DNA of 64,000 nucleotides from Gemmatimonadota bacterium (GTDB lineage: Bacteria > Gemmatimonadota > Gemmatimonadetes > Gemmatimonadales > Gemmatimonadaceae), in NCBI GenBank assembly GCA_040389905.1, contig JAZJZK010000015.1, forward strand, positions 32,001-96,000, read 5' to 3'. The notes under the pieces were generated by a model. That model had not been told where the DNA came from and ran no database searches. It was given only the letters and a program-made list of their open reading frames with translations. A program made the translations under genes and the position numbers. Of the stretch, positions 39,934 to 50,690 are shown piece by piece (the first letter of the stretch is position 1; each line of letters starts with the position of its first letter).

Positions 39934-39968
39934 GCGCACCATCTTTCACTCAAAACAACAACACATGA

Positions 39969-40034
39969 ACCACAGAGGACACAGAGGACACAGAGGACTG
40001 CGTTTTCCTCTGTGATCTCTGTGTCCTCTGTGGT
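39969..40034. repeat. CACAGAGGA 9-mer palindromic repeat; single-arm copy at 50612-50650
   Basis: Arms 39969-39997 and 40006-40034 match at 27/29. Confidence 0.8.
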
Positions 40035-40061
40035 AAAAGCACTTGCAAAGCAAGGAAGAAC

Positions 40062-41230: not shown

Positions 41231-42706
41231 TCAGGCCGACAGGCCGCCGCCGAAGAAATCTTCATTGGGACGCCGGCGCCGTCGTTCCGGCTCCGCACGG
41301 CCGTACAGGCCGGCATCGGACCGTGAAATCTTCTTGCGCGCAACGAGTGCCTCGAGCACGAGTTCACACCCTGCGACCGTCTGTTGCGCGTCCCCGACTT
41401 CTGCCAGCCCCACGTATCGGACGAGATCGATGAGGCCGGGTACGACGCCGAATGCCGCTTCCATCGCGGACGCGCGTTCGTCTTCGGTCACCTGAAGTGC
41501 GCCGCCCTCGTCGAACCAGATCACGATATCATCGGTATTGACGCCGCCGGCCCGCTCCTGGAACGTCGCATCGGCTGCGCGGCGAATGAGCTCGCGCGCG
41601 ATTGCATGCCCGCCGACGAGCTCACCCTCGTACTCCAACTCGATCTTCCCGGTGATTGCGGGCTGCGCCGCATACACGTCGGAAATGCGCGGGACGATCT
41701 CGTCTTCACCCGTGATGATCGCACGGCGCTCCGCATTGGAGACGGCGTTCTCCATCACGCTGATGGGTAGTCGCTGCGACACGCCCGACCGGCGATCGAT
41801 GCGTTTGTCCGTGCGCGCCTCGAACGCGATGCGCTCTACGACTTCCGCGATGAAATCCGGAACGCGAACCGCCTTTCCATCGCGCGCGACCCAGGACTCC
41901 TGGTCCGTAATCGCCATGCCCAGCTCGACGGTTTCCGGATAGTGCGTGATGATCTCGCTGCCGATGCGGTCCTTGAGCGGCGTGATGATCTTGCCGCGCG
42001 CGGTGTAGTCCTCTGGATTGGCGGTGAAGCACAGCTGGACGTCGAGTGCCAGGCGCACGGGATAGCCCTTGATCTGCACGTCGCCTTCCTGCATGACGTT
42101 GAACAATCCGACCTGCACCTTGCCCGCGAGATCAGGAAGCTCGTTCAGCGCGAAGATGCCGCGATTCGCGCGCGGCAGCATGCCGTAGTGAATCGTCAAC
42201 TCGTCGGACAGCACGTGTCCGCCGCGCGCGGCGCGAATGGGATCGAGGTCACCGATCATGTCCGCGATCGTGACATCCGGCGTCGCGAGCTTTTCAACGT
42301 ACCGGCTGTCTCGGCCGACCCACGCGATGGGCGTATCGTCGCCCGCCGATGCGATCAGGTTCTTCGCGTAGCGTGAAATGGGCGCGAAGGGATCGTCGTT
42401 TACTTCGCTCCCCGCCACCACCGGCATCGCCTCGTCGAGCAGCGTGACGAGCGCGCGCAAGATGCGCGACTTGGCCTGCCCGCGAAGGCCGAGGAGGATG
42501 AAGTTGTGCTTCGAGAGGAGGGCGTTGACGATCTGCGGCATGACCGTCTCTTCGTAGCCGATCACGCCCTCGAACAGCGCGTCCCCCGTCGCCAGCCGCG
42601 TGAGGAGATTCTGGCGCATTTCGTCCTTCACCGAACGCTTTGCGCGGCCCGGTGCGCCATAGGGCGAGCGTGCGAGCGCGCCGAGTGTTTCTGGGTACGA
42701 CAACAC
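41231..42706 (-). CDS. Magnesium chelatase-like AAA+ ATPase
   Basis: GLRGQAKS, ANRGIFALNELPDL, ANPEDYT.RGKIITPLKDR. Confidence 0.88.
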   Translation of the reverse strand: MLSYPETLGALARSPYGAPGRAKRSVKDEMRQNLLTRLATGDALFEGVIGYEETVMPQIVNALLSKHNFILLGLRGQAKSRILRALVTLLDEAMPVVAGSEVNDDPFAPISRYAKNLIASAGDDTPIAWVGRDSRYVEKLATPDVTIADMIGDLDPIRAARGGHVLSDELTIHYGMLPRANRGIFALNELPDLAGKVQVGLFNVMQEGDVQIKGYPVRLALDVQLCFTANPEDYTARGKIITPLKDRIGSEIITHYPETVELGMAITDQESWVARDGKAVRVPDFIAEVVERIAFEARTDKRIDRRSGVSQRLPISVMENAVSNAERRAIITGEDEIVPRISDVYAAQPAITGKIELEYEGELVGGHAIARELIRRAADATFQERAGGVNTDDIVIWFDEGGALQVTEDERASAMEAAFGVVPGLIDLVRYVGLAEVGDAQQTVAGCELVLEALVARKKISRSDAGLYGRAEPERRRRRPNEDFFGGGLSA

Positions 42707-42800
42707 CGCCTCCGAGTCAATTTAGTTTCTACTCGGAATCAGCTTGCGCGAACGTGGCGACGCAAGGGTTCCCTGCCGCAATCCTCAGGTTGGGCGACCG

Positions 42801-43297
42801 CCGGAACATTGAACGCGGATTGAGCGGATTGAAGCGGATCAAATCTGATCGTCCGGCGCTCGGGAGAATACAACGCGCTTGAAGGCCGGTTCGGGGCCGT
42901 AGTGGAAGATCAGGCCAACTTCAATGCGTGACGAACGGAGATAGTTCTGAAGCTGTTCTCGCGTTCCCGGGGGAATTCCGGTTCCGGCCTTGTTCTCGAG
43001 CATGACTCGATCGTCAACGAGGAAATCCGCACGGAACCGTCCTATCAACCGGCCGTGAAAATAGATGTCGAATGTCTTTTCGCGATCTACTTTGTGTCCG
43101 CGTTCCGTCAAGAGGATTTCCAAAGCCGCGGAGTAGACACTCTCGAGAAACCCGTATCCCACTTCGTTGTACACGTCAAAAAAGGCTTTGATCAGCTTGC
43201 CCGTCAACTCACGCTCGGGCAGCGCACGAGAAGCAGCCTCGAGCCGTTGATCATTGTTTTGCAGTCCCATCCGCTCAATCCGCGTTCAATGTTCCGG
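42801..43297. mobile_element. 497-bp GxxExxY element with perfect 29-bp terminal inverted repeats
   Basis: CCGGAACATTGAACGCGGATTGAGCGGAT at 42801-42829; reverse complement at 43269-43297. Confidence 0.7.
42839..43270 (-). CDS. GxxExxY protein (PD-(D/E)XK nuclease-like)
   Basis: GYGFLESVY, FRADFLVDDRVMLENKA, QLQNYL. Confidence 0.93.
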   Translation of the reverse strand: MGLQNNDQRLEAASRALPERELTGKLIKAFFDVYNEVGYGFLESVYSAALEILLTERGHKVDREKTFDIYFHGRLIGRFRADFLVDDRVMLENKAGTGIPPGTREQLQNYLRSSRIEVGLIFHYGPEPAFKRVVFSRAPDDQI

Positions 43298-43376
43298 TGC
43301 AACAACCCGTCCGAACAATGAGCAGATGCCGCACCAAGAGCGTCACCAAATCACCGCAACGCGAACCAAAAGAACG

Positions 43377-45482
43377 CTACGCTGCCTCGATCTCCACCTG
43401 ATTGTCGTAGAACACTGGACCGTTGCCGAGGTCGGTCACCAACTGCGACGTCGTCTGATTCGCATTCGCGCCGTCCGTCGCAAGCTTGGCCCACCAGATC
43501 GACGGCGCCCACACCACGCCCTCGCGAATCGTCGACTCCACGCGGGCCTTCGCGAGAAACGCCCCGCGATCGTTATGCACCGTCACCATCATGCCCGGTG
43601 CGATCGCTCGGCGCTCCGCGTCAGCGGGGTGGAGCAGCACTTCAGGCTCCTTCGCCTGGCGTCGCAACGACGTGATGTTCACGAACGTCGTGTTGAGGAA
43701 CGTGTGCGCCGGCGACGAAATAAGTGTGAGCGGAAAGCGTGCGACGAGCGCAGGATCACGTTCCACCGACTCGTACGGCGGGGTGAAGTCGGGAAGGGGA
43801 TCGAGGCCCAACTCCGCCATGCGCGCGGAATAGAACTCACACTTGCCGCTCGGCGTCGAGAATCCGCCATTCTCGTATGGCAGGTACGGCGTCGGAACAT
43901 TCAGCCGCATCCAGCCGCGTTCGAGCAACGCGTCGAGCGTCACGCCCTGAATCTTCGGCGACTGTGATGCCAGCGCCTGACGAATGAGGGTGAGATCATC
44001 ATCCTGCATGATCGGATCGGTCATACCCATGCGCGCCGCGATCAGACGGAAGATTTCGCTGTTCGGCTTCGCCTCGCCGATCGGATCGATCGACGGCCGG
44101 TTGAGTGTGACGTAATGATGCCCGTACGCGAGATGAAGATCCCAATGCTCGAGTTGCGTCGTTGCCGGAAGCACGATGTCAGCCCAGTCGGCGGTATCCG
44201 TCTGGAAGTGTTCAAGTACCACGGTAAAGAGGTCCTCCCGGGCCAGGCCCTGGAGCACCGCGTTGCGGTCGGGCGCAACGGACGCCGGGTTGCTGTTGTA
44301 CACGACGAGCGCCTTCACCGGTGGCCCGCCAACGCCGGCATCATCGCGCGTGAGCGCGTCGCCCAGGCGAATCATGTTGATCGTGCGGGCCGGCGGACCG
44401 AGATCCGGACGCTCGAGCGCGGCTTTGTCGAAGGCGAAATTCGCAGACGTCGAGAGCTGCACGCCGCCGCCAGGACGCCGCCAATGGCCAGCGATTGCTG
44501 GGAGACATGCGATCGTGCGAACGGCCATGCCACCACCCGCATGTCGCTGCAGGCCATAGTTCACACGAATGAACGCGGCGCGCGCACGGCCGAATCGCTC
44601 GCCGAGCGAAACGATGGTTTCTTCCATCAAACCTGTCGCAGCGGCCGCGCGCGCTGGTGTCCATTCGGACACTCGTTCCCGAAGCGCCTCGTGTCCCAGC
44701 GTGTGCCGCTCGAGGTAATCGGTGTCTTCGAGCCCCCGAGCGAAAATGACATGCATCATGCCGAGCGCCAGCGCCGCATCAGCGCCGGGCCGGATTGGAA
44801 TCCACTCGTCGCACTGTTGGGCCGTGCGCGTCTGGATCGGGTCGATGCAGATGATGCGCGCCCCGCGCTCACGGGCGGTGAGAATGAACGGCCAGAGATG
44901 CGGATTCGCCGTGAGGGTGTTCGTGCCCCACAGCAACACGAGATCGCTCTCCGGGATGCCTTCCCCATCGGCACCGATATTCGCGCCGACCGTCATCCGC
45001 ATGCCGACGGTGCCCGCCATCGAACAGATCGTGCGGTCGAGGCGCGATGCGCCGAGCGCGTGAAAGAACCGGCGGTCGATCGAGGATCCTTGCACGGACC
45101 CCATCGTGCCGGCGTACGAATACGGGAGAATTGCCTGTGGGCCGTGCTCCGACTGCGCGATATCGCCGAGCCGCGTCGCGATCTCGCCGATGGCAGCATC
45201 CCATGAGATCGGTTCGAACCGTCCGCTGCCCTTCGGGCCAACTCGGCGAAGCGGTGTACGGAGCCGGTCGTCGTGATACGTCCGTTCGACGTATCGATTC
45301 ACTTTGGCGCACAGAAATCCGCTCGTGACGGGATGGTCAGGATCGCCGGCAACACGAATTGCGCGGCCGTTTTCGACCGTTACCAGCATCGCGCAGGTAT
45401 CGGGACAATCGTGTGGGCATGCGCCGCGGACGACTCCGTTGCGAACTATCTGCGAATCGGACAAAGTTTTTTCGTGTGACAT
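43377..45482 (-). CDS. Molybdopterin oxidoreductase family protein
   Basis: CPHDCPDTC..GFLCAK, ADIVLPATT.LE, C-terminal molydop-binding domain. Confidence 0.92.
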   Translation of the reverse strand: MSHEKTLSDSQIVRNGVVRGACPHDCPDTCAMLVTVENGRAIRVAGDPDHPVTSGFLCAKVNRYVERTYHDDRLRTPLRRVGPKGSGRFEPISWDAAIGEIATRLGDIAQSEHGPQAILPYSYAGTMGSVQGSSIDRRFFHALGASRLDRTICSMAGTVGMRMTVGANIGADGEGIPESDLVLLWGTNTLTANPHLWPFILTARERGARIICIDPIQTRTAQQCDEWIPIRPGADAALALGMMHVIFARGLEDTDYLERHTLGHEALRERVSEWTPARAAAATGLMEETIVSLGERFGRARAAFIRVNYGLQRHAGGGMAVRTIACLPAIAGHWRRPGGGVQLSTSANFAFDKAALERPDLGPPARTINMIRLGDALTRDDAGVGGPPVKALVVYNSNPASVAPDRNAVLQGLAREDLFTVVLEHFQTDTADWADIVLPATTQLEHWDLHLAYGHHYVTLNRPSIDPIGEAKPNSEIFRLIAARMGMTDPIMQDDDLTLIRQALASQSPKIQGVTLDALLERGWMRLNVPTPYLPYENGGFSTPSGKCEFYSARMAELGLDPLPDFTPPYESVERDPALVARFPLTLISSPAHTFLNTTFVNITSLRRQAKEPEVLLHPADAERRAIAPGMMVTVHNDRGAFLAKARVESTIREGVVWAPSIWWAKLATDGANANQTTSQLVTDLGNGPVFYDNQVEIEAA

Positions 45483-45717
45483 CGGCGGGGGCAAAGGTCG
45501 GGCGCCAAGGTAGCACGCAGGCGACGTGGATTCCAAGCGGTGCCGCCGCCCCTTGCAGCGACTCTGCCTAAGTACCGCGGTAGTAACGACTTACAAAATG
45601 CAGTGACGGAGGTCACGAAATTGTCTCGCCGCGGGACAATCGCACTATCGGGGAAAGCCTGACATCACAGTGACAAAGCTGTTGCCGCACTTCTACTTGG
45701 CTCGCATGAATCCGCTC

Positions 45718-47131: not shown

Positions 47132-47190
47132 GATCCGTCTGCTGGAGGAATCGATTCAGGCCCCGAAACCGCGAATGCGGCGGGATACCG

Positions 47191-47388
47191 CGGGAACATT
47201 GAACGCGGATTGAGCGGATTGAAGCGAATCAAATCGGAACATCAAAACGGCTTCTTGCATTGGGCCGCTCTTCAACTGAATGAACGCGGATTGAGCGGAT
47301 GGAGCGGATCACATCTGATGAAAACTAGACTGAATCTCTAATCCGATCTTATCCGCTCAATCCGCTCCATCCGCGTTCAATGTGCCGG
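47191..47388. mobile_element. Gene-less derivative of the GxxExxY element
   Basis: Two direct copies (47191, 47281) and one inverted copy (to 47388) of TGAACGCGGAT(T/G)GAGCGGAT. Confidence 0.75.
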
Positions 47389-47439
47389 CGCAATGGTCGC
47401 AGCAACGTAGAGCGTGAACCTCACACGCTGCACCACTAT

Positions 47440-50534: not shown

Positions 50535-50690
50535 TCAGTATTCCAAGGTGGAATCAATGAACTGCAACTGCAAAGCCTTGAACGCAGAGGTCGCAGAGGA
50601 CTACGGAACAGCAACAACACATGAACCACAGAGGACACAGAGGACTGCGTGTGTCGTTTTCCAACCGCCATTTTCTTCGCCATCGTCGAC

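Follow-up and report, generated by a model that had tools for sequence, protein, structure and literature searches.

The window locus and its gene

In the window (the whole 64,000-nt stretch of DNA analyzed here), a GxxExxY gene of 143 aa (42839–43270, minus strand) lies between two inverted arms. Over their perfect 29-nt part, 42801–42829 on the plus strand and 43269–43297 on the minus strand, the arms are 100% complementary and 439 nt apart, as described in the first-pass annotation; the remaining long inverted pairs listed between 40000 and 46000 (22–41 nt) were only 70–82% complementary. The local inverted score of the locus was 58, compared with a maximum of 35 among 1500 windows of gene size drawn at random from the genome, so the arms are beyond chance. 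The start codon (ATG, 43270–43268) runs into the inner end of the right arm, and the stop codon (TGA, 42841–42839) falls within the left arm’s inner extension, again as annotated. The GC content of the 497-bp unit is 54.5%, that of the genome 63.4%.

The arms exceed 29 bp: conservation within their family (see below) runs from ≈42799 to ≈43299 and reaches inward across the first and last codons of the gene. Each arm is a direct array of 9–10-nt units with an RCGGAT core. The left arm, at the 3′ end of the gene (42799–42850, plus strand), comprises a lineage-specific outer extension (42799–42808), a TT terminus found family-wide (42809–42810), three units, and the inner extension, which codes for the final codons plus the stop. 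The right arm, at the 5′ end (43250–43299, minus strand, with an approximate inner limit), holds the ATG and the first codons. In the one folding run carried out, the arms paired with each other. Contig loose ends from other family copies cluster at 42799 and 42801. The annotated unit of repeat, gene and repeat thus stands as anatomy, but its arms are longer than 29 bp, are arrays, and belong to a genome-wide family.

Two host genes on the minus strand lie outside the element: downstream, an AAA+ ATPase of the magnesium-chelatase type (41231–42706; weak family matches), and upstream, a molybdopterin oxidoreductase (43377–45536; family match). Upstream of the ATPase, a CCCTTGCGTCGC-like motif (≈42755–42770, minus strand) is kept in most congeners and is probably the promoter of the ATPase gene. 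The element sits upstream of this motif and leaves it intact.

The protein matched PF13366 (PDDEXK_3; 98.6 bits, cut-off 22) and TIGR04256 (GxxExxY; 97.7 bits, cut-off 35), in agreement with its earlier identification. These were its only matches in Pfam and NCBIfam, where no recognized transposase or recombinase was hit. In an alignment of 47 sequences from both clades (see below), E43, D82, E92, K94 and Q106 were invariant and Y110 nearly so, which we take to be an E-D-ExK plus QxxxY motif. The closest entry to the predicted structure (pLDDT 89.6) in Foldseek was Cas4 SSO0001 (E = 2.4e-5), followed by MGME1 and phage exonucleases, while VIA-align returned restriction-fold proteins with no clear winner (best Z = 8.2, RMSD 3.0 over 97 residues). 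According to these models, the window protein has a PD-(D/E)XK fold with an intact Cas4/RecB-like catalytic motif and is a putative nuclease. A sequence search for a solved relative gave a best E of only 0.15, and a homodimer prediction with a score of 0.00 was counted neither way.

The closest homologue (P0002) is 67% identical, and the family comprises 41,227 clusters at 50% identity (E 0.001), two-domain forms included. In the two-domain proteins (P0121–P0138; 250–295 aa), a rough pattern check (n = 16) found D..ExK in at most one domain each, which hints that one half is active and the other degenerate. None of the 5027 models of the 2023 PADLOC library matched the protein at E 0.01, and a single-protein query of viral contigs gave no match. 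PDDEXK_3 is entered as ‘Unknown’ in a table of PMC3424549, and the context in which GxxExxY appears in 10.1101/2021.01.26.428298 is that of a mis-called cas4.

Gene-less hairpins and sister families

The arms recur throughout the genome. A search with the 19-nt arm core (≤3 mismatches) gave 139 matches in the 5.08-Mb assembly, compared with 0–11 for ten shuffled motifs. The family core matches form 57 inverted pairs, 56 of which are gene-less (64–196 nt) and one gene-bearing (477 nt, the window locus). One gene-less copy, missed in the first-pass annotation, lies only 4 kb away (47187–47390). It has three arms (47187–47235 and 47281–47319 on the plus strand, 47357–47390 on the minus strand), the inner pair of which folds as one long hairpin. 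Conservation over 114 arms starts ≈12 nt outside the core, and the similarity between left and right arms of the same element exceeds that under shuffled pairing only from −12 inward (0.67 compared with 0.58; 0 of 1000 shuffles). Together, these observations place the element at ≈42799–43299.

Among the 112 arms of the gene-less copies, matches of at least 35 nt to the left end of the window element were found in 59 and to its right end in 41, and these matches span the stop and start codons of the gene. The interiors are diverse, with a median nearest-neighbor identity of 0.75 and 3 of 54 at ≥0.9, and arm types are reassorted among elements (AA 22, AB 14, BB 19). Target-site duplications of 2–6 nt showed no excess over shuffled pairing in 30 element pairs, consistent with the absence of a duplication noted in the first-pass annotation. 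We considered the possibility that the hairpins are plain deletion products of the gene-bearing form, but no interior matched the body of the gene (best score 27, median 18). Adenine mutagenesis of the reverse-transcriptase type was also rejected, the core changes hitting G, T and A alike.

The outer 18–28 nt of the arm was tandemly repeated at 3 of 129 arms, with the junction 4–8 nt into the core (5 flagged in all; control 1/600), which may be a weak hint of a break point. The same outer segment is amplified to tandem arrays at C7:310330–310740 and C8:26640–26830, on both sides of the element in the case of C7. In the single read run (X1) that contains the window locus, and that may come from the source sample itself, no excision joint was found there; no RNA run containing the locus was listed. 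Apparent joints in X1 turned out to be contigs from elsewhere in the family: the 24 nt that join 42850 to 43256 are those of the copy on C8.

The 55 elements are distributed over tandem gaps (23), convergent gaps (17), divergent gaps (two) and crude ORF calls (two), with 11 unplaceable. Convergent and divergent gaps thus account for 17 and two of the 42 placed elements, compared with 22% and 26% of background gaps. Gene-less copies lie a median of 29 nt from a stop codon.

The other two GxxExxY genes of the genome, on C2 and C14, each lie between their own inverted arms. Their arm types recur elsewhere, mostly in the form of short inverted pairs (relaxed motif matches, 48 and 46, with partial overlap between the families), so that each of the three genes has arms and gene-less copies of its own.

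A sister hairpin family with CRCAGAG units (GAG; the window family is denoted GAT) is present as 58 gene-less pairs. One full hairpin of this family lies in the window at 39966–40036, and two CRCAGAG arms in the same orientation lie partnerless at 50580–50645. No GAG-clade gene or remnant was found in this 84.6% complete assembly; however, GAG arms occur at 9 of the 132 contig ends, so such a gene may be unassembled. Two other genomes (G007 and G011) are in a similar situation, and a 96% complete one (G017) has 19 GAT matches and no gene. Across 24 congeners (G012 left out), at least 10 GAG matches were present in 12 of 14 with a GAG-clade gene and 3 of 10 without, and at least 10 GAT matches in 10 of 21 with the GAT clade and 1 of 3 without. 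The weakness of the latter link is due in part to drift of GAT-clade arms to other units. Among 15 gene-free genomes, one had ≥10 GAT matches and one ≥10 GAG matches, the latter under its own control. G011, G015 and G013, which have paaD-locus proteins of a single group, are rich in AAT repeats, but these repeats are commoner still in G020 and G009, where an AAT-armed gene was not seen.

Other small genes have similar layouts. The genome contains five four-helix-bundle (TIGR02436) genes (C9:40410–40730, C6:201670–201990, C6:173826, C7:413494 and C12:209002). Two of these are enclosed by long inverted arms of their own (scores 89 and 69), and another two have short tandem arrays upstream; these cassettes represent a parallel layout with a non-nuclease protein. 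An ORF at C13:67286–67752, read as a candidate small GIY-YIG nuclease, lies between copies of a different dispersed repeat. A motif related to this repeat occurs in the window at 136, 23570, 26343, 51708 and 58195, and the repeat is often nested in GAG hairpins.

Arms and protein clades across phyla

The first-pass annotation had named repeats around other GxxExxY genes, and their co-variation with protein clade, as checks on its proposal, and both were borne out. For 192 loci, the upstream flank was scored against the reverse-complemented downstream flank, with a threshold of 30; 19 loci had been dropped (short flanks, partial or no match) and seven duplicates removed beforehand, and the loci scored are bacterial. 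Inverted arms (score ≥30) were found at 151 of the 192 loci, compared with 1 of 169 displaced controls, leaving 41 loci below the threshold. One locus (L004) comes from an unpublished genome (G012), and omitting it gives 150/191. By group, the counts were 30/32 in the host’s own order, 58/75 in the pattern scan, 18/27 in Bacteroidota, 18/25 in Planctomycetota, 15/19 in gamma-type Pseudomonadota and 12/14 in five further genomes, the names of the last four groups resting on the named center locus. Decayed copies are under-sampled, because loci from the genome search are the best-scoring ones. Three arm classes have in common a TT at −6/−5 and a C before the first unit.

A quick tree of the 192 proteins (118 columns; 104 of 189 forks open) has a deep split (SH-aLRT 98) between 71 and 121 rows. 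Labeled loci on the 71-row side (n = 49) comprise 31 GAG, 16 AAG, two other and no GAT, and those on the 121-row side (n = 77) 64 GAT, one GAG and 12 other. Over all 126 labeled loci, the label changes 26 times on the tree, compared with a shuffled mean of 55.8. Each side holds the host’s order, Bacteroidota, Planctomycetota and Pseudomonadota; with four or more phyla on both sides, the unit goes with the protein rather than with the host. Since kin share labels, this coupling denotes long co-inheritance rather than recognition. Co-inheritance of gene and arms would follow from linkage and is insufficient as proof of recognition.

A locus between paaD and MATE genes is common to 12 congener loci, with proteins 42–81% identical. 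Ten of these have both flanks, and in eight of them the left arm found its best match in the right arm of the same genome. The two arms therefore evolve together even at a site that the gene has not left.

At the window locus, the situation is different. An empty site in relatives, another of the checks named beforehand, was found: none of 29 congener loci had a GxxExxY match upstream of the ATPase. These loci are the best-scoring of 52 congeners with a match to the downstream ATPase, and three of them have <900 nt upstream. The oxidoreductase lies within 1.5 kb of the ATPase in 17 of the 29 and within 200 nt in 11; without the 497-bp unit, the gap in the window would be 177 nt, near the <200-nt gaps of the congeners. 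Three loci (L047, L057 and L058) share a different insert of 500–700 nt in the same gap. The window locus has no flanking ORF in common with 63 other GxxExxY loci of the order. Searched with 2 mismatches, the 20-nt arm gave 123 matches in this genome, five in G023, which has the sister protein to the window GxxExxY, and 0–2 in the other 51 of 52 relatives. Fixed-site inheritance was seen for the paaD–MATE copies and for a Flavobacterium locus described below, but not for the window copy, which is best read as a lineage-specific insertion, while others stayed put.

Seven loci (L064, L087, L108, L122, L163, L164 and L212) have the gene between long direct repeats, several of them whole hairpins (hairpin–gene–hairpin); such direct repeats could permit gain or loss of the gene by recombination. 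At L256 and L264, the inverted arms are very long (scores 194 and 163) and extend well past the repeat units.

Interpretation and comparison with known systems

We think it probable that the arms and the gene constitute a two-part mobile-DNA system, similar to REPIN/RAYT and run by a restriction-fold nuclease. The simplest account of the clade coupling, the arm symmetry and the private expansion would be that the protein reads the arms, and from these sequence patterns we infer binding, cleavage, the cut position and the movement of the arms by GxxExxY. The gene-bearing form (arms plus GxxExxY) would supply a metal-dependent PD-(D/E)XK nuclease, which would recognize the phased 9–10-nt units as double-stranded DNA and cut near the outer end of the arm. 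Gene-less hairpins with the same arms would spread slowly, in trans, into gaps just past stop codons, and the cassette itself would move rarely. Because the fold hydrolyzes DNA and is not, to our knowledge, known to join strands alone, host repair or recombination would probably complete the copying. Copying by host repair fits the absent duplication, the reassorted arm types and the tandem repeats of the outer segment. More tentatively, as a proposal that we take seriously without quite favoring it, GxxExxY proteins in general might be the mobilizing enzymes of bacterial mobile DNA that has no transposase or recombinase, in which a stand-alone Cas4-like nuclease reads phased tandem units, co-evolution of gene and arms re-tunes its specificity, and the hairpins are copied by host repair; the four-helix-bundle and GIY-YIG cassettes might then be parallel versions of this life-style.

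It is rather unlikely that GxxExxY is instead a domesticated gene, kept for a cellular job such as trimming or resolving hairpins and cruciforms or self-regulation, with the arms as binding sites and the gene-less copies as a by-product. Such a role would suit the shared paaD–MATE locus and a second fixed site in Flavobacterium, between genes that we take to be bioF and bioD. The cassette is present there at 19 loci and absent at 18 (from 50 loci fetched, with two duplicates and 11 without a flank, in a selection that favored filled loci). Fifteen of the 19 cassettes read as intact, and the median dN/dS was 0.09 over 35 pairs of 11 genes. At the 18 unfilled sites, the gap is empty or contains arms on their own, hairpins of other types or a different gene; filled and empty flanks are just 71–88% identical, with no base-exact pair, and the TA on both sides of the element is indistinguishable from part of the arm. 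PHROGs and the phage collection gave no match to GxxExxY, and only six plasmid records had one, five of them over 400 kb. The element is, judging by these loci, not simply a jumping parasite. Rather than standing alone as the candidate “minimal selfish element” of the first-pass annotation, the window unit heads a gene-less hairpin population, and other members have long been fixed under purifying selection. A similar pattern is described for RAYTs, some of which are vertically inherited (10.1101/2021.07.10.451892). Against domestication, the presence of GxxExxY is patchy (26/41, 32/51, 18/41 and 18/121 genomes), with up to 11 matches per genome and frequent broken copies, and apart from shared loci such as paaD–MATE, most loci have no flanking gene in common. 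A domesticated function also overlaps the two-part mobile system rather than excluding it.

The orphan hairpin families that lack a matching gene (GAG here, AAT in G020 and G009) count against a GxxExxY system. They would be expected if another enzyme or host repair moved the hairpins and GxxExxY were only passive cargo, one of several captured small genes, as the parallel layouts of the four-helix-bundle genes (2/5 with inverted arms) and the GIY-YIG gene would also suggest; their like layout with other repeats makes a shared outside driver possible. However, the unit tracks the protein clade across phyla with one clear exception, the repeats of the four-helix-bundle and GIY-YIG genes are unrelated to these arms, no gene besides GxxExxY was found between arms of the GAT or GAG families in this genome, and the GAG arms at contig ends leave room for a missing gene. 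We consider passive cargo unlikely.

It is highly improbable that the hairpins act in transcripts (in termination, stability or processing) with the protein as a hairpin RNase: the position of copies past stop codons and in convergent gaps would fit, but selection on insertions would likewise keep copies out of promoter gaps, arm mismatches had no G·U-compatible excess on the transcribed strand (12 compared with 11, and 4 compared with 11), which points to DNA, no Rfam family was found at either GAAC-type element, no terminator-like site was found, and the nearest folds of the modeled protein are DNA nucleases.

Mobile-DNA classes are defined by their enzyme, and we know of none that runs on a lone restriction-fold nuclease. 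In the open-access texts searched, we found no account linking GxxExxY or PDDEXK_3 to repeats, though large MITE catalogs such as PMC11602168 may include the repeats unnamed; the GxxExxY–arm system is real, widespread and apparently undescribed. If the two-part mobile system is correct, a very large family, entered as ‘Unknown’ in the table mentioned above (PMC3424549), would gain a function and a precise substrate; this family would rank among the largest of the unassigned nuclease families. Intergenic repeats that number in the hundreds per genome in little-studied phyla would be accounted for as well. With three proteins and three arm families in one genome, the system is directly testable.

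The window protein resembles Cas4, RecB and lambda exonuclease in its predicted fold and E-D-ExK plus QxxxY motif, but is much shorter and has no adjoining cas operon. Cas4 has a four-cysteine Fe-S cluster; the window protein has no cysteine and thus no such cluster. Restriction-fold or free-standing nucleases take part in DNA mobility in Tn7, where TnsA needs TnsB, and as homing endonucleases, which cut the empty allele and, unlike GxxExxY, have no dispersed gene-less partners. Insertion sequences and MITEs have terminal inverted repeats, one gene, and gene-less derivatives with both ends. Terminal inverted repeats are likewise common to the gene-bearing and gene-less forms here, but there is no DDE, DEDD or HUH transposase, no target-site duplication, no near-identical burst among the interiors and no interior match to the gene body. 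By the tests run, the window family is not a REPIN, IS or MITE.

TIRtrons, as described in PMC3733652, also have a gene between inverted repeats that form a dispersed family, but TIRYTs are tyrosine transposases, and the GTAG/CGTC tags are absent here. The closest likeness in life-style is to REPIN–RAYT, described as extragenic hairpins of ≈100 nt with two inverted arms and a variable spacer (PMC3116915; 10.1101/2021.07.10.451892). The hairpins here are similarly short and extragenic (two of 55 inside crude ORF calls), a low-copy gene has its own population’s repeat on either side, one genome contains several gene/repeat groups, diversity builds up within a lineage, and some genes are vertically inherited. 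The RAYT–REP analogy drawn in the first-pass annotation is apt. In contrast to the HUH/Y1 tyrosine transposase of RAYTs (PF01797 had no match in this 84.6% complete assembly), the enzyme here is of the PD-(D/E)XK type; the arms are direct arrays of a 9–10-mer rather than short palindromes like REPs; the gene lies inside one element, with start and stop codons within the arms; and its positions vary widely among congeners. The newness of the system thus rests on the enzyme, in its presumed role, and on the arm type, while the life-style resembles that of REPIN–RAYT, of which it would represent a second, independent case.
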